From a virus, in UHGV virus genome UHGV-1352852: DNA of 44,165 bases, one strand, 5' to 3'. Both the position numbers and the translations under genes were made by a program. The notes under the pieces are model-generated. The model was not told the DNA's origin and did not search any database. It worked only from the letters and a program-made list of their open reading frames with translations. Below are positions 4,270-38,390 of the stretch, in pieces (the first letter of the stretch is position 1; the number at the start of each line of letters is the position of its first letter).

Positions 4270-4376
4270 TCTTTAATCCTTTGGTTAAGAGGTTACTGGT
4301 TGATGGTGTTGCGCCAGACGGGAACCACCCGCTTTTCGTGTGCGACACTAGGCGCAAACTTATTCTAACACACTAC

Positions 4377-4405
4377 TTGCACACCCCAATATAATAGGGT
4401 ACTAT
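4377..4405 (+). promoter_or_regulatory. sigma70-like promoter TTGCAC-N17-TACTAT with embedded AATAG-N4-CTATT palindrome
   Basis: Member of a repeated promoter family (see findings); located ~30 nt upstream of the 4434 start codon. Confidence 0.5.
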
Positions 4406-4433
4406 TCACCTGTAACCTACTGAGGAAATAATT

Positions 4434-4760
4434 ATGCGTAAATTAGTATTAGCTCTGGGGTTTATGTCTTTTGCCGCTTTTGGGTCTCCGTGCGAACAGG
4501 TATTTAGTGAATCTGTTCTTATGACTTCTGGTGTTCTCGATAAAGCCGACCCTACTATTGTAAAGGCATTTAAGGACTCTACCGTTCGCGAGTGTGAGGC
4601 CGCTGTAGAGGTTGGTAAATCGGGCCTACCCCCGCAGGCCGTAACCTACACAGTGATACGTTCGGTAGAGAAAAACGGAGATGCTTTCTATAGCCTACTG
4701 ACAGCCACCCGTCTGCAAATGGTAATGACAGGGTGGGCGATAGGCGCAGAAAGTAAATAG
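4434..4760 (+). CDS. small secreted protein (Sec signal peptide), moron
   Basis: N-terminus MRKLVLALGFMSFAAFG is a typical signal peptide; GAGGA RBS; plus-strand gene inserted within the minus-strand tail module. Confidence 0.6.
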   Translation: MRKLVLALGFMSFAAFGSPCEQVFSESVLMTSGVLDKADPTIVKAFKDSTVRECEAAVEVGKSGLPPQAVTYTVIRSVEKNGDAFYSLLTATRLQMVMTGWAIGAESK

Positions 4761-4825
4761 TCGCCTTTATTTAAAGGAATGCACTGTGGTTAAATAGGAC
4801 AAATCCTAAACACGAGGAAGTAAGC

Positions 4826-5956
4826 ATGGCCCAGAAGAAAATAACCGACGAACAGTTACAGGAAGAATTGAACGCCGGGATGAAGATTATTGATATCGCC
4901 CGTAAATACGGCATCTCAGACCGCGTTATTCGTATCCGTAAAGCGAAGCTGGCTAAGAAAGGTGTAGGCCACGGGCGCGACGTTAGTCACCTTGTGCCGG
5001 ACGGCTACAAGATTAAAGGCACGTCGTCCCTGGTGGACGAGTTCGGCAACACTAAGTTGCAATGGGTTAAGACTGACACCGATGCTGAACGTCAGGTCGA
5101 GTTGATGAAAGCCGTAATTGAAGGCATGAAGTCAGAGATTACACCTGTTGCGCCTGTTAAAGCGACTCGCGCCAAACGCGACGATAAACTTCTCAATCTT
5201 TACACTGTGTCTGATTTCCATCTCGGTATGCTTGCATGGGCAGACGAGAGCGGCGACGACTGGGACATGAAGATTGCAGAAGACCTGTTCTCTCGATGGT
5301 TCGACGCGGCGTTTCAGAAAGCACCGGACGCGGGAACAGGAGTTATTAATCTGCTAGGAGACTTCGCGCACTTCGATAGTCTTGATGCCGTTACCCCTGA
5401 GTCGCGTCATGTGTTAGACGCCGATACTCGCTATCAGAAACTAGTTCGCTACATGATTCGTATGGTGCGTCGTGTTGTCGATATGGCGCTTGTTAAACAT
5501 CACACAGTCAAACTCTTAATAGTTCAAGGTAACCACGACCCTGTAGGCTCTGTATGGCTCGCCGAAATGTTCACGGTTTTATACTCAAACGACAGCCGAG
5601 TGATTGTCGATACGTCACCAGACGTTTACAAGATGGTGCAACACGGCAAAACGACGTTGTTCTTTCACCACGGGCATAAATCGCGCTTCGATGCTATCGA
5701 ACCGGTTATGATTGCCAAGTTCCGCAAAGCGTTCGGCGAGAGTGTTTACAGCTACGCCCACGTAGGCCATCTGCACCACCAGAAGATTGTAGAAAGCCGT
5801 AACATGGTTGTTGAGCAACACCGCACCTTAGCGGCTAAAGACGCCTACGCCTCCCGCGGCGGATGGATGTCGGGCCGCAGTGCTAATGTAATTACTTATA
5901 GCGCCGAATATGGTGAGGTCGCACGTTTAACTATTTCACCGGAGATGCTGGGATGA
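4826..5956 (+). CDS. HTH domain fused to a calcineurin-like metallophosphoesterase
   Basis: N-terminal HTH (IIDIARKYGISDRVIRIRKAKL); ordered metallophosphoesterase motifs DFH, GDFAHFD, GNHD, FHHGH, GHLHH; GAGGAAG RBS. Confidence 0.75.
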   Translation: MAQKKITDEQLQEELNAGMKIIDIARKYGISDRVIRIRKAKLAKKGVGHGRDVSHLVPDGYKIKGTSSLVDEFGNTKLQWVKTDTDAERQVELMKAVIEGMKSEITPVAPVKATRAKRDDKLLNLYTVSDFHLGMLAWADESGDDWDMKIAEDLFSRWFDAAFQKAPDAGTGVINLLGDFAHFDSLDAVTPESRHVLDADTRYQKLVRYMIRMVRRVVDMALVKHHTVKLLIVQGNHDPVGSVWLAEMFTVLYSNDSRVIVDTSPDVYKMVQHGKTTLFFHHGHKSRFDAIEPVMIAKFRKAFGESVYSYAHVGHLHHQKIVESRNMVVEQHRTLAAKDAYASRGGWMSGRSANVITYSAEYGEVARLTISPEMLG

Positions 5957-6183
5957 CTTCAAAATACAACCGAACAATGACAAACATTCACGGCAGCACT
6001 ATGACAGTAGACGTTTATGATGTTCTCCGTGCTTTCGATATCCGTGACCCGGCGCTACAGCACGCATTGAAGAAGCTGTTGTGTATGGGCCTGCGCGGTC
6101 ACAAGGATACCGGAACAGACTTAGCGGAAGCAATTGAAAGTCTGGAGAAGTTACGGGAATACCGAAGCAATATTGATGAGTAA
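5953..6183 (+). CDS. small helical phage protein (possibly DUF3310-like, from recollection)
   Basis: 76-aa ORF whose start overlaps the preceding stop (ATGA); segment VDVYDVLRAFDIRDPALQHALKKLLCMGLRG resembles small lambdoid-phage proteins. Confidence 0.45.
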   Translation: MTSKYNRTMTNIHGSTMTVDVYDVLRAFDIRDPALQHALKKLLCMGLRGHKDTGTDLAEAIESLEKLREYRSNIDE

Positions 6184-13180: not shown

Positions 13181-13209
13181 TTGCGCACACCAACATAACA
13201 GGGTACTAT
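13181..13209 (+). promoter_or_regulatory. sigma70-like promoter TTGCGC-N17-TACTAT with embedded palindrome
   Basis: Near-identical to the copies at 4377 and 16229; ~28 nt upstream of the 13237 start. Confidence 0.5.
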
Positions 13210-13236
13210 TCAGTTAATTTAAACAGGAGATGAAAA

Positions 13237-13758
13237 ATGGTTACTACAGTAATTACTTTCCCTGCGTATGTAGGGGCGAAAATATGCAGGGCTAAAAATG
13301 ATGTTCGCTACTATTTGAACGCTTTTTACATAGACCCTGAAGGATTGATAGTGTCTACGGACGGTCATAGATTGTTCTGCGACAATGTGAAGACCAACGT
13401 TGAGAAAGGGACTCTCATAGACATCAAAGGGAGAGAGCCTTCTAAATTTAACTACGCGGAGGTAAACCACGACAACGGCAGTGTATCTTTCTATGACGAT
13501 AATCGTGCGCTTATATGTACACTTCCGGTAGATGTTGTAGAAGGAAACTTTCCTGACTGGAGACGCGTGGCGCACATCACACCGGGTGTTGTCGATAGTA
13601 TAGGGTTCACCCTGCGTTATTTGGCAGACGCGTACAAGATTTCTAAGGCATACAAAAATGAAATTGCTCGTTTCGATTTCCAGGACCAAACCAGAGGATG
13701 TAAAATACTATTTTCAAACACGGCCTTTATGGTGTTAATGCCTGCGCGATTTAAATAA
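13237..13758 (+). CDS. beta sliding clamp (DnaN)-derived mini-protein
   Basis: Carries DnaN hallmark motifs in order: DVRYYLN, TDGHRL, GNFPDWRRV, IGFTLRYLADA and C-terminal FMVLMPARF (compare E. coli DnaN DVRYYLNG, TDGHRL, GRFPDYRRV, IGFNVSYVLDV, YVVMPMRL). AGGAGA RBS; terminator downstream. Confidence 0.7.
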   Translation: MVTTVITFPAYVGAKICRAKNDVRYYLNAFYIDPEGLIVSTDGHRLFCDNVKTNVEKGTLIDIKGREPSKFNYAEVNHDNGSVSFYDDNRALICTLPVDVVEGNFPDWRRVAHITPGVVDSIGFTLRYLADAYKISKAYKNEIARFDFQDQTRGCKILFSNTAFMVLMPARFK

Positions 13759-16184: not shown

Positions 16185-16228
16185 ATGCCCTCCTGTAGTA
16201 TCGCCAGTGTAACGCATAAAAATAATAT

Positions 16229-16257
16229 TTGCAGACACCAATATAATAGGGTACTAT
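16229..16257 (+). promoter_or_regulatory. sigma70-like promoter TTGCAG-N17-TACTAT with embedded palindrome
   Basis: Third near-identical copy; leader shares TATCGAAACGAGA with the copy at 26613. Confidence 0.5.
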
Positions 16258-16291
16258 TCAGCTATCGAAACGAGAGATAAGGGATTTAAAG

Positions 16292-16504
16292 ATGAAAGAA
16301 TTAATTATCGCGGTATTGACGACACTGGCAGTTTCACTGGTAATTGCTGCTGGTGTACGTAGCTTAGATAAACACGGGTGTGAGAACTACGGAGATGTCA
16401 CAGGCAGAGAGGTAATGTATAGTTACACAACTTGTTATGTGAAAACTGATAGAGGTTTTATCCCTCGTGAAGAACTTAATTTCAGAGCAGCGACACATGA
16501 ATAA
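16292..16504 (+). CDS. small membrane-anchored protein, moron
   Basis: 70 aa; N-terminal TM segment LIIAVLTTLAVSLVIAAGV then a short Cys-containing domain; AAGGGA RBS; terminator downstream. Confidence 0.5.
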   Translation: MKELIIAVLTTLAVSLVIAAGVRSLDKHGCENYGDVTGREVMYSYTTCYVKTDRGFIPREELNFRAATHE

Positions 16505-21529: not shown

Positions 21530-21558
21530 AATATAATAGGGTCTAAGGTAATAGTCAA
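21530..21558 (-). promoter_or_regulatory. sigma70 promoter TTGACT-N17-TATATT (minus strand)
   Basis: Read on the minus strand; ~30 nt upstream of the small gene starting near 21497. Confidence 0.4.
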
Positions 21559-21580
21559 CTAGTCATTACAGAAAACAGAT

Positions 21581-24993: not shown

Positions 24994-25188
24994 TGCGCAA
25001 CCTCATACAAAGTTTCCGGGTAACCCCATGTTGCTTTAGCGACAAGATTATTACCGCTATCTATGTAGATAGACTCTGGCGTACCCGCATTAATAACCAT
25101 GTGATACATAAGACCTTCTACTGTGCTGAAAAACTCATCTTTAGTTACTTCTTTCATCTTCCGTCTCTCCTCTCGTTTGTGTAAATGA

Positions 25189-25217
25189 ATAGTAGCCTAT
25201 TCTATCTTAGTGTGCAA
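25189..25217 (-). promoter_or_regulatory. sigma70-like promoter TTGCAC-N17-TACTAT (minus strand) with palindrome
   Basis: Same promoter family, read on the minus strand; upstream of a small minus-strand ORF starting near 25157. Confidence 0.45.
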
Positions 25218-25530
25218 ATAAATTTTATTGGTGTTTTAACGATAATTGTTCGCCGCGAATCCAATAGTACCTCGGGCGTCGTGCCAACTGACGCCACCTC
25301 ATAACCCGGTACTTGTTGCCGTCTGACGCAACAATAAGCCCGAATCGCTTTTTTCCGTTTCTACCGGCCCAGGTCACGATGTCATTCAGTTTCATTGTTG
25401 CATCTCCTGCAATAATCGCTTCTATTGTTGCGTTCGGTGAAAGTGTCGCTTTTTGACGACACTAATCTAAAGTTGTACGCTGCTGTGTAGCAGCGTAAGT
25501 CACTCAGTCAAATAGTAACCTATTGACCTG

Positions 25531-25731
25531 TTACACCAGTTTCGGCGGTTTAGGCAATTTCCTCCAGTGCGTTATATCCTCGTTGTCTATGACAGAGTTG
25601 AATTCATCCCAACTATCCCACTCATCCGAATCATCATCGAACCATTTAATCTCAACCTCTCCCCCATCAGTCACAAGTACATGAGAGAAAGGAGCGGGCA
25701 TCTGCTCACTGCACTTAATCCACTTACTCAT
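25531..25731 (-). CDS. DUF551-like small phage protein
   Basis: N-terminal WIKCSEQMP and acidic Trp-rich C-terminus; paralogous to 25882..26094. Confidence 0.5.
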   Translation of the reverse strand: MSKWIKCSEQMPAPFSHVLVTDGGEVEIKWFDDDSDEWDSWDEFNSVIDNEDITHWRKLPKPPKLV

Positions 25732-26579: not shown

Positions 26580-26612
26580 AACCCCACTCCTCTGTCTCGT
26601 TTCGATAAGTGA

Positions 26613-26641
26613 ATAGTATCCTATTATGTTGGGGTGCGCAA
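26613..26641 (-). promoter_or_regulatory. sigma70-like promoter TTGCGC-N17-TACTAT (minus strand) with palindrome
   Basis: Minus-strand reading GCGCACCCCAACATAATAGGATACTATTCAC is near-identical to the plus-strand copies at 4377, 13181 and 16229. Confidence 0.5.
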
Positions 26642-27001
26642 GAGAATAGTTACGTTGCCGTTGTGATTCTTCGGGGAAGGTTGTGCCTTTATTCTTATTA
26701 CTTGGTAACTAAAGGGCAGGCCTTAAGGCCTGCCCAATAATCGTTACATTTTTACGGTTGCGAATCTACGGCATAGGAAGAAACAGTAGATATTTCAGCT
26801 GGTTACTTCTTTAAATGAGATTTAGATACACTTATCCTTAAACCCCAAGGCAAGCATCTCAGCTGTCTGGGAGGGGTTGACGAATCCCTCGGGGAGGGTT
26901 CGTCAACTCCGTAATACATACAAGTCCCAAAACCATTATACAAACATGAGTCAAGAACTTTCAATAACTTTTTTGTAAAGATTAAATATTGCAGGGATTG
27001 G

Positions 27002-27030
27002 TTGCTTTTACATTCCCGCTATCCTATACT
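27002..27030 (+). promoter_or_regulatory. sigma70 promoter TTGCTT-N17-TATACT for the rightward replication block
   Basis: Read directly; ~30 nt upstream of the 27063 start with AGGAGA RBS between. Confidence 0.4.
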
Positions 27031-27062
27031 CGGTTTCACTAAACAAACAGGAGATATAAAAA

Positions 27063-27245
27063 ATGCAGCATTACATGACACAGAATGAAGTCGCCGAACG
27101 TATCGGGGTAACACGTCAGACAATTAATAACTGGTTGCGCAGTGGTAAATTCCCGGATTGTTGTATTAAGGTTATGGGTCGCCGTTTACCCGGTACATTT
27201 GATCGAAATAAAGTTGAAGCGTGGATTAAGGAGAACGTGAAATGA
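27063..27245 (+). CDS. AlpA/excisionase-type HTH DNA-binding protein
   Basis: MTQNEVAERIGVTRQTINNWLRSGKFP is a typical AlpA/Xis-like HTH. Confidence 0.55.
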   Translation: MQHYMTQNEVAERIGVTRQTINNWLRSGKFPDCCIKVMGRRLPGTFDRNKVEAWIKENVK

Positions 27246-27726: not shown

Positions 27727-29946
27727 ATGAATATTGTTTTTGCAACGCTGCGTAACACATTCGATAAAAACCCTGTAGCGCGTGAAATGCCGCTGGAGCA
27801 GTTCGTAGAGTATGTCTGTGATACATCAAAGCGTTTGTCCGTGGACCCGTCATGGACTAAAGAAGAGTACGACGCTGCCAAGATTAAACAGAAAGCTATT
27901 GCGCCTGTTGGTGGCCGCCGTAAAAACGCTATTCTGGAAGACAGTGTGGTTAAGTTCGACTTCGACCATCTAAACCGTACTCAGTACCGCGACCTTACCC
28001 GCAAATTCAAGATCGCACCGTTCTTCAATATTCTGCACACAACGGCATCGCATCAACATGCGTGTAAAAACGGTGATTACGCCTTCCGCGTTCTCGTACC
28101 GGCTCGCACGCCGTTTAACTCTAACGACGCGTGGATGGTTCAACGGGCTATTTGTGCAGAGTTAGAAATAGACGAAGCATTGCGCGACCACTGCACGGAA
28201 GATGGCAACCGCCTCATCTACCTGCCACATAGAGAGTCGAAGATAACGGTTACAGAAGGGCGTGTTATCCGTGCCGAGCGGTACATCAAGAAAGCCGAAG
28301 AGATGGGGTTGCGTAAACGCGAAGCTAAGACACTTGCCGCCGATGAGCATGGGCTTAACGCAGATATAGCGCATTTCTGCGAAGCCGAGCTTGGCCTTGA
28401 CGTCTTATCTTCTGGTCGCGGGTACGAAGTGCCATGCCCTAACGAACATCTGCATACAGGCAAGGGCTCCACCAGCATCATGCTCGACGGTAAAGAAGTT
28501 CGCTTTGTCTGCCAGCATACAAACAACGGCGCTTGCACCGAGCTTAACCGTAGGCAGCATTTGGCCCTGCGTATGTGTGGCCTACCCGACGAGCTTAACG
28601 TAGATAAGCAACCTATCAGCATTAACAGCATTCGTGCGGCTCTACCTGATTTACCGGAAGAAGAGATTGAAGAACTACACCGCACAGAGAACGAGGATCC
28701 AGTAACTTGCAGCCTCGACGACCTGGAAGACGAGGGCTCAGAAGAGGACGAGCTACCGGAACCGGTAAAGGCTGATTTCGTCGTTGAGGGGTACATGCCG
28801 TCAGATTGCATATGGGATATTGTCGGTGAATCTGGTACGTACAAATCATTCTATACGCTGGGGATGATGTACCTGAGCGCCGCCGGATACCGGTTTGCAG
28901 GGGCGGATACCCAGCGTTGCCACCATTTCTATATCGATGGCGAAGGCGGTGCAGCTACACGTACACGTATTGATGCGCTAGCGGCTAAATATGGCGAGGA
29001 AGGTAAAGATTATGTACATGTTATCGATATGGGCGAAGTCGGAAAACTGAAAAGCCTGATTAAGTTAATGCGTGAAACTGCTGGCGATGAGCCAATTGGG
29101 GTGGTCGCGTTTGATACCCTTAACCAGACGCTAGCCCTGACGATTGATAAGTTCGACGAGAACAGTTCGTCCACGGCAATCGGTATGGGTAAAGTTATCG
29201 CCATCCTGAAAGAAGTACGTGATGCGACTAAAGCCGCGGTGGGCGTTGTCCACCATACGCCGAAGGGTGGAAAGAAAGCCCGTGGCAGCGGGGCACTGTA
29301 TGCAGGTGTCGACGTCGAGCTGACAATCGAACGCGCTACCGACCGCCAGATAAACGTATACCACTCGAAATTTAAGCACGGGCCTCAACAGAAAACCGTC
29401 GGCATGGTGCTTGAGTCTGTACAGTTCCGTGAAGCCCCGCCGCCGAAAGAATACCGTGCTGTTGAGTTCCTGGGTAGCACAGAAGAATACGGCACAATCG
29501 TAAACCTGGACCTTCCTGAGCCGCATAAGGCACTTGTGCTGATGCCGTGGGGCTTCGAGCCGTTCAAAACCGACGAGGAGAAAGAGCGCGAAGAAGGGCT
29601 GGCAAAGGAAGGTAAAGAAAACGTAAAGAATGCCGTAAAACGTGGGAAGGATGAAGTAAGGAAGGAGTCAATACTTTCGGCACTGGAAGACCTGCAACAG
29701 TCAGATGACACAGGTCGCGGTTTTACTCAGCAGCAGATAGTTGCCCGTTCCGGTGACTTTTCTGTGACTAACACCCATCTTGATAAAATGCTGAAAGATG
29801 GTGAACTAATGCTAGGCTGTGATGCTAATGGCGAAGTAGTACCGAGAACGTATCGTATACCTGAAAGAATAGGGGATAGACTAAGACCGAAGACAATATA
29901 CGAACCGAATGAAATGCTGGTAGTGACAGAAGAGGATTTGGAATAG
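27727..29946 (+). CDS. DNA primase/helicase (primase-like N-terminal domain + RecA-like AAA_25-type ATPase)
   Basis: Central Cys/His cluster (CPNEHLHTGKG...CQHTNNGAC), Walker A-like GESGTYKS, Walker B VVAFDTL, downstream HHTPKGG; 739 aa. Confidence 0.65.
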   Translation: MNIVFATLRNTFDKNPVAREMPLEQFVEYVCDTSKRLSVDPSWTKEEYDAAKIKQKAIAPVGGRRKNAILEDSVVKFDFDHLNRTQYRDLTRKFKIAPFFNILHTTASHQHACKNGDYAFRVLVPARTPFNSNDAWMVQRAICAELEIDEALRDHCTEDGNRLIYLPHRESKITVTEGRVIRAERYIKKAEEMGLRKREAKTLAADEHGLNADIAHFCEAELGLDVLSSGRGYEVPCPNEHLHTGKGSTSIMLDGKEVRFVCQHTNNGACTELNRRQHLALRMCGLPDELNVDKQPISINSIRAALPDLPEEEIEELHRTENEDPVTCSLDDLEDEGSEEDELPEPVKADFVVEGYMPSDCIWDIVGESGTYKSFYTLGMMYLSAAGYRFAGADTQRCHHFYIDGEGGAATRTRIDALAAKYGEEGKDYVHVIDMGEVGKLKSLIKLMRETAGDEPIGVVAFDTLNQTLALTIDKFDENSSSTAIGMGKVIAILKEVRDATKAAVGVVHHTPKGGKKARGSGALYAGVDVELTIERATDRQINVYHSKFKHGPQQKTVGMVLESVQFREAPPPKEYRAVEFLGSTEEYGTIVNLDLPEPHKALVLMPWGFEPFKTDEEKEREEGLAKEGKENVKNAVKRGKDEVRKESILSALEDLQQSDDTGRGFTQQQIVARSGDFSVTNTHLDKMLKDGELMLGCDANGEVVPRTYRIPERIGDRLRPKTIYEPNEMLVVTEEDLE

Positions 29947-29947
29947 G

Positions 29948-29976
29948 TAAAAAAGAAAGGGGCTTTAAGCCCCTTC
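29948..29976 (-). terminator. rho-independent terminator for the XRE regulator gene
   Basis: Minus-strand hairpin AAGGGGCTTAAAGCCCCTT followed by a T-rich run; the gene stop codon lies in the hairpin. Confidence 0.45.
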
Positions 29977-30180
29977 ACCGAACGCCAGCCACTTGGCGTC
30001 TACTTCCAGCACTTCCGCCAGTTTAAACAGCGTTGCCGGGCGGACGTCCTGAGTTACCCCAAGTGCCAGCTGGTTAATCGCGCCCTGTGAAACGCCAGCC
30101 AGGACAGCCAGACGGCGCTGGGAGATGCCGAGTTCTTTGCGGCGTTGTTCTACACGGATGCCTAGTTCAGAGGGTTGCAT
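29965..30180 (-). CDS. XRE-family (Cro/CI-type) HTH transcriptional regulator
   Basis: RRKELGISQRRLAVLAGVSQGAINQLALG is a classic XRE HTH; transcribed opposite to the surrounding replication genes; GGAG RBS. Confidence 0.7.
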   Translation of the reverse strand: MQPSELGIRVEQRRKELGISQRRLAVLAGVSQGAINQLALGVTQDVRPATLFKLAEVLEVDAKWLAFGEGA

Positions 30181-30210
30181 ATCAATTACTCCTTAGTTAG
30201 TTGATATGCG

Positions 30211-30273
30211 AATAGTACCATATTAATTATTTTAGAAAAACCCATTGACATGTGAATAGTTCGCTATTATAGT
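30211..30273. promoter_or_regulatory. operator/promoter region: two AATAG-N4-CTATT palindromes and TTGACA-N17-TATAGT promoter
   Basis: Palindromes at ~30211-30224 and ~30255-30268; plus-strand TTGACA (~30245) and TATAGT (~30268) bracket the second; lies between the divergent XRE gene and the 30305 gene. Confidence 0.5.
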
Positions 30274-30304
30274 TAGCCCATACCAAACGAGAGGAGAGAA
30301 ACAA

Positions 30305-30805
30305 ATGTTAGAACAATTTCTGAAATTACTGGAACGTTTCGTAGTTGCGCATGAACTGATTGCTGCGAACAGTGTGAAACAGGTTGTTCAGGTTGCCGCG
30401 CCGCTGGAAGTAGAGACGGTAGTGTATGCCAAAGAAGCGGTAGCCGAGTGCACCGAAGAAGCAACAAAAGAAATCCCGGTCGAAGGTGAAAACATCGTCG
30501 ACACTAAACCGGCGGAAGACGAGAAGCCTAAACGCAAGCCGCGTAAAGCTAAAGCAGAGGAGCCTACGCCAGAGCCGGAAGAAGAGAAAGAAGAAGTCGA
30601 TTACCAGTCTCTTCGGGACCAGATTCAGGCTATCGACGATGCGATTAACGAAGGTCCAAGCGATGCCGCGTGCGACGATTCTGACGAACTGCTGGAAGAG
30701 TTCACCGGTAAGAAGATGAAGATTGCCGCGATTAAAGATGAAGACCTGGCAGAGTACCTGGAACGCCTGACGGCGATCAAGAACAAGTATTTCGAAGAAG
30801 AATAA
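30305..30805 (+). CDS. acidic protein of unknown function
   Basis: 166 aa, Glu/Asp/Pro/Lys-rich low-complexity centre; GAGAGGAGAGA RBS; hairpin terminator downstream at ~30810-30832. Confidence 0.45.
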   Translation: MLEQFLKLLERFVVAHELIAANSVKQVVQVAAPLEVETVVYAKEAVAECTEEATKEIPVEGENIVDTKPAEDEKPKRKPRKAKAEEPTPEPEEEKEEVDYQSLRDQIQAIDDAINEGPSDAACDDSDELLEEFTGKKMKIAAIKDEDLAEYLERLTAIKNKYFEEE

Positions 30806-32396: not shown

Positions 32397-32425
32397 TTGA
32401 CACCTGAATAGTAAGCTATTATAGT
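32397..32425 (+). promoter_or_regulatory. sigma70 promoter TTGACA-N17-TATAGT with AATAG-N4-CTATT palindrome in the spacer
   Basis: Same arrangement as at 30245; upstream of the 32479 gene. Confidence 0.5.
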
Positions 32426-36462: not shown

Positions 36463-36747
36463 ATGACCCCGGAAGGAAAAATACAGAAATACGCAAAAGA
36501 GCGATTCGAGGCCATCGGGGGCCTCGTCCGTAAACTGTCTTATGAGGGGCGCTCCGGCGCTCCCGACCTGCTGGTAATTCTCCCGGGCGGCATCGTCTGG
36601 TTCGTCGAGGTGAAGAAAGACGAAAGCACGAAGCCTGACCCACACCAGTTACGAGAGCATGAGCGGATGCGTAAACGTGGTGCGAATGTTTTTGTCGTCG
36701 GGTCGTTCAAACAGGTTGACGACCTAATAGCGAACTATTATAGTTAG
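36463..36747 (+). CDS. VRR-NUC domain nuclease
   Basis: Internal ATG of track ORF 36448..36747; PD-(D/E)XK-type core GAPDLLVILPGGIVWFVEVKKDESTKPDPHQLREHERMRKRG. Confidence 0.6.
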   Translation: MTPEGKIQKYAKERFEAIGGLVRKLSYEGRSGAPDLLVILPGGIVWFVEVKKDESTKPDPHQLREHERMRKRGANVFVVGSFKQVDDLIANYYS

Positions 36748-36777: not shown

Positions 36778-36969
36778 ATGAAATACGAATATGACCGTAA
36801 ACCAGCACGTGACATCGTACCTGGCGACATGATTTTCAACGTTAAGACCCGCCAGCCTGTTGCCGTTGATACGGTGTTCGTCGAGTCAAACGGTAAACTG
36901 GTTATCGAAGATGTAACAGGCAATGTTACAGCGTTCGGGCGTAAAGAGTTAGTTCTGGTGGCAAAATGA
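36778..36969 (+). CDS. hypothetical protein
   Basis: 63-aa track ORF; stop overlaps the helicase start. Confidence 0.4.
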   Translation: MKYEYDRKPARDIVPGDMIFNVKTRQPVAVDTVFVESNGKLVIEDVTGNVTAFGRKELVLVAK

Positions 36970-38390
36970 GTAAGTTTCAAAGGCGCGAATATCAGAAGCT
37001 CATGACTTCGTTCATGTTGCAACACCATCGCTGCAACATATGGGCGAGCATGGGTGCCGGGAAGACTGGCAGCGTACTGTGGGCATTAAACCGCCTGTTC
37101 CGCAACGGGCAGCTTACGGAAGAGGACCGCGTGTTAATCCTCGCCCCTTTACGTGTTGCGTCAGGTACGTGGCCCGCAGAACAAACTAAGTGGGGTTTCC
37201 CGTGTCTGCGTGTCGTCGATGCAACGGGTTCGGAGAAGCGCCGCATCGCGGCGCTGGAGTCTGACGCTAATGTGGTGTGCACGAACTACGAAGTTATCGA
37301 GTGGCTGATTGACTACTACGGCAAAGACGACTGGCCTTTTACGGTTATCGTTGCCGATGAAAGCACGAAGCTGAAATCGTTCCGTAGCCGTTCTGGTGGC
37401 AGCAAGCGAGCAAAGGCGCTTAGTAAAGTGGCGTTCGGTAAGGTTAAGCGTTTTATTAACCTCACCGGCACACCATCACCAAACGGCCTCAAAGACCTGT
37501 GGGGGCAGAACTGGTTTATCGACGCAGGCGAGCGCCTCGGCTCATCGTACACGGCATTCACCGACCGCTGGTTTAACTCGGTGCAGAAAGGCAAATCAGC
37601 TATGGCCCGTGAATATCACGCACGCCCGGGGGCTGATAACGAGATTCATCAGAAGATGAAAGACATCAGCCTTACGATTGACGCCGCCGAGTGGTTTGGT
37701 TGTGAAGCGCCGATTATTGTACCGGTTGAAATCGACCTGCCGAAGAAGGCGCGTCAGGCGTACATTGATATGGAGGAAAAATTATTTGCGGAACTGGAGA
37801 GCGGGGAAGTTGAAGCGGCTAACGCGGCGGCGAAGACGTCGAAGTGCCTGCAGATTGCATCCGGTGCCGTATATGTGTCCGGGCCGGATGGCGAAGCAAC
37901 CAAAGACTGGGAGAGAGTGCACGACACGAAACTGGATGCGCTCGAGTCGATTGTTGAGGAGTTACAGGGTGCGCCGCTGCTTGTGGCTTATCAGTTCAAG
38001 CACGAACTGGAACGTATCCTTAAGCGGTTCCCGCAGGCGCAGGCGTTCGCCAAAGGTGTTAAGGGCAATAAGCAGATGGAAGCGTGGAACCGTGGCGAAA
38101 TCGAAATCTTATGCGTGCACCCCGCGTCAGCGGGGCATGGTTTGAATTTGCAGGACGGCGGACATCATCTGGCGTTTATTTCGCAAGGCTGGAACCTTGA
38201 GCACTATTTGCAGGTTGTCGAGCGTATTGGCCCGGTCCGCCAGAAACAGGCGGGCCACGAGCGCCCGGTGTTCCTCTATCATATCGTTGCTAAAGACACG
38301 CTTGATGAGGTTGTTGCCGCGCGTACTGACGAGAAGAAATCGGTGCAGGAAGAGTTGCTTAATTACATGAAGAGACGAGGTAAGAAATGA
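36966..38390 (+). CDS. SNF2-family DNA helicase/ATPase
   Basis: Walker A MGAGKTG, DExx box VIVADEST, SNF2-type motif INLTGTPSPNGLKDLW, C-terminal helicase domain. Confidence 0.75.
   Translation: MSKFQRREYQKLMTSFMLQHHRCNIWASMGAGKTGSVLWALNRLFRNGQLTEEDRVLILAPLRVASGTWPAEQTKWGFPCLRVVDATGSEKRRIAALESDANVVCTNYEVIEWLIDYYGKDDWPFTVIVADESTKLKSFRSRSGGSKRAKALSKVAFGKVKRFINLTGTPSPNGLKDLWGQNWFIDAGERLGSSYTAFTDRWFNSVQKGKSAMAREYHARPGADNEIHQKMKDISLTIDAAEWFGCEAPIIVPVEIDLPKKARQAYIDMEEKLFAELESGEVEAANAAAKTSKCLQIASGAVYVSGPDGEATKDWERVHDTKLDALESIVEELQGAPLLVAYQFKHELERILKRFPQAQAFAKGVKGNKQMEAWNRGEIEILCVHPASAGHGLNLQDGGHHLAFISQGWNLEHYLQVVERIGPVRQKQAGHERPVFLYHIVAKDTLDEVVAARTDEKKSVQEELLNYMKRRGKK

Follow-up and report, generated by a model that had tools for sequence, protein, structure and literature searches.

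A palindromic operator candidate recurring across a virulent Kagunavirus genome, and a 71-residue Cro-like protein as its probable repressor

We analyzed the virus genome UHGV-1352852, a stretch of 44,165 nucleotides referred to here as the window, and found that a 14-bp palindrome, AATAG-N4-CTATT, recurs at promoters throughout it. A 71-amino-acid helix-turn-helix protein of the XRE family is the best candidate to bind this palindrome, and we consider it probable that the protein does so and represses the promoters that carry it. As read from the sequence, this is a new, unstudied repressor-operator system of the Cro/434 kind, in which binding is the predicted element, and it is notable mainly for putative operators that span the whole genome of a virulent phage. 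The segment 29000-31500, which includes the regulator gene, is 91-95% identical to Escherichia coli Kagunavirus phages (Guernseyvirinae), such as HSE2 and the BASEL phages Bas70-76 (91% for the latter), and the gene order annotated in Bas76 is that of the window in reverse orientation.

Eight exact copies of AATAG-N4-CTATT are present in the 44-kb window against 0.04 expected, and none of 100 shuffled sequences reached this number. The palindrome was also the top match in an unbiased scan of all 5-N(0-8)-5 palindromes (p = 1.7e-16), and 40 Markov-1 simulations produced at most 3 copies of any such palindrome. Among the recurrent 14-mers of the window, AATAG-N4-CTATT also ranks first, and three conserved one-mismatch sites accompany the exact copies. 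Relative to the promoter hexamers, the sites occupy three registers in this window (centers at about -13.5, -18.5 and -33.5), and a fourth register, at about -15.5, was observed in the Pantoea phage AH01. When 44 distinct intergenic variants were compared, the arms were invariant, and the central 4 bp and the linker from the -35 to the site differed in sequence and even in length. The homologous Cornellvirus promoters keep the -35 and the -10 and have lost the palindrome. The existence of several registers, together with one copy that lacks a promoter, indicates that the dyad is a protein-binding site and not a part of the core promoter; likewise, since the Cornellvirus promoters keep their hexamers without it, the promoter itself does not need the palindrome. 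Chance and a core promoter element were thus ruled out by the four registers, the promoterless copy and the absence from the homologous Cornellvirus promoters. On these comparative grounds, the palindrome is an independent protein-binding element, and it is the identity of the binding protein that we infer.

The candidate protein is encoded next to two of the sites, in a region with the following features:

29965-30180, minus strand: gene of the XRE/Cro-like regulator, 71 amino acids with a single HTH_3 domain (Pfam match).
29956-29976, minus strand: predicted intrinsic terminator of the monocistronic XRE transcript, from the terminator scan (GAAGGGGCTTAAAGCCCCTTT and then a T-run).
30211-30224, minus strand: O2, imperfect putative operator AATAGTACCATATT, which the minus strand reads as AATATGGTACTATT; its right arm holds the -10 of the XRE promoter.
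30245-30273, plus strand: P_right, predicted sigma-70 promoter of the orf166-exonuclease operon (TTGACA 30245-30250, 17 nucleotides, TATAGT 30268-30273).
30255-30268, no strand assigned: O1, exact putative operator AATAGTTCGCTATT, located in the P_right spacer and reaching 1 nucleotide into the -10.

The XRE protein matches the Pfam family HTH_3 (PF01381) over residues 11-65 with E = 2.3e-12 and 47.2 bits (cut-off 23). Its nearest solved relative by sequence is phage 434 Cro, also of 71 amino acids (E = 5.4e-7), followed by the 434 repressor, HipB, HigA and P22 c2. A single-sequence AlphaFold2 model (predicted local distance difference test, 84) contains helices at residues 5-17, 21-28, 32-39, 48-57 and 62-66, and its top Foldseek matches are 2cro and 1pra (template modeling scores 0.73-0.79); as modeled, the fold is a compact five-helix domain superposable on 434 Cro and the 434 repressor. 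The recognition helix is predicted to be S31-Q-G-A-I-N-Q37, and the Gln at its start is invariant in all aligned homologues. Conservation reaches 95-100% across 36 Kagunavirus loci, and homologues are carried by more than 550 GenBank phage records, mostly Guernseyvirinae. A C-terminal oligomerization domain or S24 peptidase domain is absent according to Pfam. From this kinship, the protein is likely to be a helix-turn-helix repressor of the phage 434 Cro type; many GenBank records already name the gene 'transcriptional repressor' or 'Cro'. As a separate observation, positions 29983-30017 within the gene match with 100% identity a type I-E CRISPR spacer of E. coli 2017.09.02CC (NZ_AP025214.2, 4038605-4038639), which adjoins cas1e/cas2e and is the sole match to the XRE stretch among 5,426 complete E. 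coli genomes.

The XRE gene lies between the helicase-primase gene (27727-29946, plus strand), on which it converges, and the orf166, exonuclease, single-stranded-DNA-binding-protein-like (SSB-like) and DNA polymerase genes, all on the plus strand; it diverges from the orf166-exonuclease genes, and its terminator overlaps its own last codons. P_right matches the consensus at 11 of 12 positions and O1 is centered at about -18.5 from it, with arms that do not vary among Kagunavirus variants and a central N4 and a linker to the -35 that vary in sequence and length. O2 departs from the palindrome by one mismatch in the right arm of AATAGTACCATATT. This mismatch is conserved: almost every Kagunavirus variant examined has AATATGGTACTATT, one locus shows a different single-base change, and 'AATAGTAC' at O2 does not vary among 44 distinct variants from Kagunavirus and Jerseyvirus. 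The XRE promoter has its conserved -10 (TACTAT, 30217-30212) inside O2, in the layout of the family-1 promoters described below, and the Jerseyvirus XRE promoter is a regular member of that family (TTGCGT-17-TACTAT). An alternative promoter candidate for the XRE gene (TTCACA 30256-30251, 16 nucleotides, TAAAAT 30234-30229), back-to-back with P_right, is present in Kagunavirus only and is not conserved in Jerseyvirus.

The XRE-orf166 region contains only these two sites, 44 bp apart, and the next-best 14-mers have four mismatches. A similar arrangement recurs in three lineages. The divergent promoter carries the strongest local site, and the -10 of the XRE gene's own promoter always carries the weakest, with 1, 2 and 1 mismatches in Kagunavirus, Jerseyvirus and AH01, respectively. 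The center-to-center distances between O1 and O2 are 44, 55 and 65 bp in these lineages; they step by approximately one helical turn, as would be expected if dimers bound to both sites interact. A preliminary description of this DNA, made from the letters alone, had proposed a Cro/CI-like helix-turn-helix protein on the minus strand amid plus-strand replication genes, with two copies of the palindrome upstream, one of them within the spacer/-10 of a divergent TTGACA-N17-TATAGT promoter, in the layout of an autoregulated switch. The HTH_3 match and the placement of O1 agree with it, and so does the divergent two-operator arrangement with the weaker site on the gene's own promoter; the second copy turned out to be imperfect, and no bistable cI/Cro switch was recognized. 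Such an immunity switch was discarded as a candidate in view of a divergent partner without a helix-turn-helix or S24 domain, the lack of an integrase and the lack of a tripartite operator. The partner, orf166 (30305-30805), is a member of phrog_3127, whose function is unknown; it had no Pfam match, and neither a DNA-binding nor a peptidase domain was present in it. An S24 domain was not found in the early- and replication-region open reading frames scanned, nor was one annotated in Bas76. As had been claimed beforehand, no integrase is present: neither an integrase nor another lysogeny function is annotated in the Guernseyvirinae genomes Bas76, Ent1, VSiA, PhiSTP2, Tsm2, AH01 and TS33, and all the open reading frames of the window of at least 300 amino acids have an annotated structural or replication homologue in Bas76.

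The phyletic pattern also points to the XRE protein. All genomes in which a palindrome regulon is embedded in the promoters encode it, namely Kagunavirus, Jerseyvirus, Tsm2 and AH01 with the near-identical metagenomic genome L053, and it is the only recognizable DNA-binding protein common to all the motif-bearing genomes. In AH01 and L053 the protein is 44% identical to that of Kagunavirus, with the predicted recognition helix TQGGIGH versus SQGAINQ. AH01 contains five exact copies of AATAC-N4-GTATT (0.033 expected, p = 3e-10) in addition to one-mismatch copies, and no exact AATAG-N4-CTATT. The AATAC sites occupy promoters of the types that bear AATAG sites in Kagunavirus; they include an exact one at the promoter divergent from the XRE gene and a one-mismatch one at the XRE gene's own promoter, and others are located at an early promoter and at late-region islands. 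In L069 and L075, where the helix is SQGYISH, TTAGC-N2-GCTAA was found in promoter spacers. In Jerseyvirus (helix SQSLITH) a T flanks 36 of 36 half-sites, and Kagunavirus half-sites are flanked by T or G. Two further palindromes were not used: most copies of TAAGA-N4-TCTTA (L055 and L060 groups) are in coding sequence, one of them overlapping a ribosome-binding site, and TAATA-N8-TATTA (L070 group) has few copies and no clear promoter context. Given that the XRE protein is the only shared DNA-binding protein, that the site changes in AH01, that the operator spacing steps by helical turns and that the protein is akin to 434 Cro, we take it to be the probable binder of the palindrome.

The sites fall into two promoter families plus two isolated cases. 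In family 1 (sites at 4393, 13197, with one mismatch, and 16245 on the plus strand, and at 25188, 26612 and 30211 on the minus strand), the promoters read TTGCnn-N10-AATAGGnTACTATT, the site is centered at about -13.5 and its right arm constitutes the -10 (TACTAT). In family 2 (30255, 32407 and 36726), which reads TTGACr-N4/5-AATAG-N4-CTATTATAGT, the site lies in the spacer, with its center at about -18.5. Apart from those of the XRE locus, the predicted sites and promoters are:

4376-4406, plus strand: family-1 promoter with the operator at 4393-4406, heading the opposite-strand late-region island 4434-6183.
13181-13210, plus strand: family-1 promoter with the one-mismatch operator AACAGGGTACTATT (13197-13210), heading the island gene 13237-13758.
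16228-16258, plus strand: family-1 promoter with the operator at 16245-16258, heading the island gene 16292-16504.
21530-21563, minus strand: promoter (TTGACT, 17 nucleotides, TATATT) upstream of the small-gene/terminase operon.
21550-21563: one-mismatch operator ACTAGTTGACTATT, which overlaps the -35 of the terminase-operon promoter; center at about -33.5.
25188-25218, minus strand: family-1 promoter with the operator at 25188-25201, of the second leftward small-gene operon, which runs into the lysis genes.
25511-25524, no strand assigned: orphan exact operator without a recognizable promoter, conserved in L034.
26613-26641, minus strand: family-1 promoter (TTGCGC, 17 nucleotides, TACTAT) with the operator at 26612-26625, heading a leftward small-gene operon.
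32397-32425, plus strand: family-2 promoter with the operator AATAGTAAGCTATT (32407-32420), heading the SSB-like/DNA polymerase operon.
36716-36744, plus strand: family-2 promoter with the operator AATAGCGAACTATT (36726-36739), heading the operon of a 63-amino-acid gene and the helicase gene.

Operator-bearing promoters head two leftward early-like operons (25188, 26612), all three replication operons (30255, 32407, 36726), three late-operon islands (4393, 13197, 16245) and the terminase operon (21550); the operator of the latter is conserved in Kagunavirus and Jerseyvirus. The only predicted promoter without a site among those examined, in a map that is not exhaustive, is the helicase-primase promoter at 27002-27030. 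The orphan operator lies just past the stop of the gene 25531-25731 and before the hairpin ACGCTGCT-ACAC-AGCAGCGT. A tandem GGTGTAACAGGT repeat precedes this operator in L034. Its possible roles are those of a roadblock or of a looping partner of the 25188 site, which is 323 bp away. ACCCCAAyAT, situated between the -35 and the operator, is a further element common to the family-1 promoters, and most operator-bearing promoters are followed by a 5' untranslated region block, (c)gAAACGAGAGGAG, that ends in the Shine-Dalgarno sequence (4407-4433, 16259-16291, 25157-25187, 26580-26611, 30274-30304 and relatives) and is common to Kagunavirus, Jerseyvirus and Tsm2. The islands 4434-6183, 13237-13758 and 16292-16504, all on the plus strand, interrupt the long minus-strand late operon, and each starts at an operator-bearing family-1 promoter; their transcripts would run antisense to late read-through. 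The island genes 13237-13758 and 16292-16504 have no homologue in Bas76.

All these site positions would block RNA polymerase, which points to repression. In the mechanism that we propose, a dimer of the XRE protein would bind AATAG-N4-CTATT by contacting the arms and not the central 4 bp, and, placed between or over the -35 and -10 of nearly all the recognizable phage promoters, it would exclude the host sigma-70 RNA polymerase. The protein would be made from a family-1-type promoter whose -10 sits in the weakened operator O2. As its level rises, promoters with strong operators, which serve the early operons of small genes, all three replication operons and the late-operon islands, would be turned down first. 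The XRE promoter itself would follow only at a higher concentration, resulting in negative autoregulation, to which cooperative binding at O1 and O2, both on one face of the helix, may contribute. Once the antisense island promoters are shut, late read-through would suffer less interference. Such a scheme fits a Cro-like global shut-off, a dosage governor or a negative-feedback repressor in lytic growth. The preliminary description had taken the palindrome to be the mark of early promoters and the XRE protein to be the prime candidate repressor for an early-to-middle transition. The palindrome does recur at early-like promoters, and the comparison of genomes upholds the XRE protein as the best candidate binder; the dedicated switch finds no support, since sites are spread alike over early-like, replication, island and terminase-operon promoters, a distribution that fits a global turn-down instead.

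Several observations weigh against assigning the palindrome to the XRE protein. Between Kagunavirus and Jerseyvirus, which have the same core palindrome, the identity of the protein is only about 50%, and 4 of the 7 recognition-helix positions differ. Cornellvirus, the Hafnia phage TS33 and the phiEap-2-like phages have a syntenic XRE gene (35-43% identity) and no genome-wide palindrome, keeping only a degenerate site at P_right; a de novo search for an equivalent motif in Cornellvirus yielded only GC-rich coding repeats. In Tsm2, the XRE-proximal region has only three-mismatch sites, while other promoters of this phage carry good ones. The AATAC variant occurs in one lineage only, AH01 plus L053, and a search for further AH01-type genomes in IMG/VR returned only L053 itself. 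Moreover, the same co-variation would be expected of any unrecognized DNA-binding protein specific to a lineage, and no paper tying the XRE protein to the motif was found.

Part of this evidence favors the alternative that survives best, in which a different factor, either an unrecognized phage protein or a host protein, binds the palindrome and the XRE protein acts locally or elsewhere, adjoining two sites merely because sites lie at nearly every promoter. The core motif remains constant although the recognition helix differs strongly between Kagunavirus and Jerseyvirus, XRE orthologues occur in genomes without a regulon-wide motif, the XRE region of Tsm2 lacks good sites, and many small early open reading frames have no known function. 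However, in a profile of all the open reading frames of the window against seven complete genomes, none but that of the XRE protein was common to all motif-bearing genomes, and none was restricted to them. A conserved host factor is also hard to reconcile with a motif that differs by phage lineage (AATAG, AATAC, TTAGC-N2-GCTAA), and three lineages have both the weak site at the XRE promoter and a phased spacing of O1 and O2. We regard a different factor as possible but rather unlikely.

Another alternative accepts the XRE protein as the binder and changes its role: it would be an immunity or dormancy repressor that keeps an integrase-less genome as a quiescent episome (carrier state or pseudolysogeny) and provides superinfection immunity. 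The presence of operators at nearly every promoter, that of the terminase operon included, is in line with this idea, as is an apparently complete Kagunavirus genome that was deposited as a 'plasmid', circular and 44 kb long, of an E. coli isolate from blood. This record (L092; CP088689.1, pC16EC0033-2) is 44,086 bp long and typed as non-mobilizable; it is 90% identical to the window segment 29000-31500 over 87% of it, with the same gene order and an extra gene between the XRE gene and orf166. It appears to be a complete Kagunavirus genome, and it may represent either a carrier state or a phage that contaminated the culture, so that this single record is explained equally well without dormancy.

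Other observations speak against dormancy. The protein has no C-terminal oligomerization or S24 domain, no antirepressor or cI partner was seen, and neither the Bas76 annotation nor a Pfam scan revealed partition or plasmid-replication genes. Among the 5,426 complete E. coli genomes, only the CRISPR spacer was found and no phage genome, and Guernseyvirinae phages of this group are reported as strictly lytic (PMC7203180, PMC9825357). We consider a dormancy repressor improbable. In the literature, unstable lysogens are described for the Serratia phage Eta, whose authors state that it has only the structural module in common. We give equally little credence to its wider form, a whole-genome silencer that sustains a carrier state with superinfection immunity and in which the antisense island promoters take part in the decision.

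The window encodes two recognizable DNA-binding proteins, and the second was considered as the binder of the palindrome:

27063-27245, plus strand: HTH_17 (excisionase/MerR-like) protein of 60 amino acids (Pfam HTH_17, E = 1.6e-8), a rival candidate binder.

From the promoter spacer, it could either repress or, in the manner of AlpA, load onto RNA polymerase at the promoter; proteins of the AlpA type bind promoter-proximal elements. This protein looked better than the XRE protein at first. Kagunavirus and Jerseyvirus, both bearing the motif, have versions of it with 82% identity; it is absent from the motif-less Cornellvirus and would be made from a motif-free promoter, given that its putative promoter (TTGCTT 27002-27007, 17 nucleotides, TATACT 27025-27030) has no operator. 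However, absence, defined as no tblastn match at E<=0.01, or at E<=1e-3 in the seven-genome profile, was also recorded in the motif-bearing Kagunavirus variants L034 (6 exact sites) and L025, and in Tsm2 and AH01/L053. In L034 the slot of this gene is occupied by unrelated genes; for L025 the absence rests on the missing tblastn match alone. These absences make the HTH_17 protein a very unlikely binder. A 63-amino-acid protein of phrog_4879 (36778-36969, plus strand) was also rejected, as it has no DNA-binding signature and occurs in Kagunavirus, Jerseyvirus and Tsm2 only, being absent from AH01. The function of this beta-rich protein is unknown, and its identity between Kagunavirus and Jerseyvirus, 97%, exceeds that of the neighboring genes by far; it is present in Tsm2 at 43% identity and absent from Cornellvirus, AH01 and TS33. 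Finally, structures of HipB, HigA and C proteins, which turned up among the weaker matches by sequence and by fold, raise the idea of an XRE-type antitoxin (HigA/HipB-like) or a restriction-modification C protein with the nearby palindromes as its private operator, which is hardly credible for a monocistronic unit set between its own promoter and the terminator at 29956-29976 and converging on the primase gene, whose neighbors (the primase gene and orf166) include no toxin, kinase, endonuclease or methyltransferase gene, whose site occurs at 10 other places in the genome and for which no co-transcribed toxin or restriction-modification partner was seen in the nine annotated relative genomes examined.

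Two other regions showed unusual features. Positions 26580-27062 form a 480-bp gene-poor divergent region. It carries a strong predicted promoter on the minus strand (TTGAAA-18-TATAAT, 26964-26935), the inverted repeat TTGACGAA...TTCGTCAA at 26878-26907 and, at 26735-26714, a GC-rich terminator hairpin; this region could be the source of a short non-coding transcript or a replication origin. An Rfam scan of the window gave no matches. In the Cornellvirus genome VSiA (L003), the intergenic region downstream of the primase gene (37005-37296) contains G-rich repeats GGGGGAGA, CCCCC runs and two GTGAATAGTTAT repeats, a composition that is unusual for these genomes.

Few phages of E. coli and Salmonella are isolated as often as Guernseyvirinae (Kagunavirus, Jerseyvirus and relatives), which are promoted for therapy, biocontrol and as synthetic-biology chassis; our literature searches found no functional or transcriptomic study of them. 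If repression by the XRE protein is confirmed, one 71-amino-acid protein and a 14-bp site would describe most of the regulatory wiring of these genomes and would predict which promoters are both strong and unregulated when the protein is missing. The AATAG and AATAC types would represent natural orthogonal repressor-operator pairs, and one could address directly whether these phages are able to silence themselves in the host. A carrier state, should it exist, would matter since the therapy proposals rest on the inability of these phages to lysogenize.

The motif had been noticed before in the Kagunavirus phage fBC-Eco01, in which seven PHIRE matches gave the 'phage promoter' consensus tgAATAGTa-ccTATTat-T, which is the same motif, and it was ascribed to a phage-encoded RNA polymerase (PMC9825357). 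The dyad symmetry, the varying register and the link to a helix-turn-helix protein were not noted in that paper. No RNA polymerase gene is annotated in Bas76 and six further annotated Guernseyvirinae genomes, and the reading of the motif as the promoter of such an enzyme is mistaken.

Regarding known regulators, SinR and the restriction-modification C proteins resemble the XRE protein in their HTH_3 fold and size, and C proteins use unequal paired operators for autoregulation; in contrast, the Kagunavirus locus has neither restriction-modification genes nor a SinI-like partner, and its sites are genome-wide. Lambda Cro, which acts at PL and PR, is similar in the role proposed here, as a small repressor made early, which later dampens early transcription and restrains its own production. 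However, lambda Cro has a winged, beta-containing fold and only two operator clusters, and this functional resemblance does not imply homology.

The closest known system is that of phage 434. The 434 Cro protein binds 14-bp dyads without contacting their center. It differs from the system described here in its operators, ACAA-N6-TTGT instead of the AATAG-N4-CTATT of Kagunavirus, and in the presence of three adjacent operators, whereas Kagunavirus has two local ones 44 bp apart. In addition, Kagunavirus, a virulent phage, lacks a divergent cI, an integrase and an immunity region, the partner being orf166, of unknown function, and its sites extend over about 11 promoters throughout the genome, compared with only OL and OR in 434. 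On the other hand, 434 Cro (PDB 2cro, 3cro) is the best match in both sequence and predicted fold, as a single-domain, five-helix HTH_3 protein of 71 amino acids with a Gln that opens the recognition helix. The two systems would also share a dyad of 14 bp in which the outer bases are conserved and the center, presumably not contacted, is variable, as well as operators that overlap the promoter hexamers and cover the promoter of the regulator itself.

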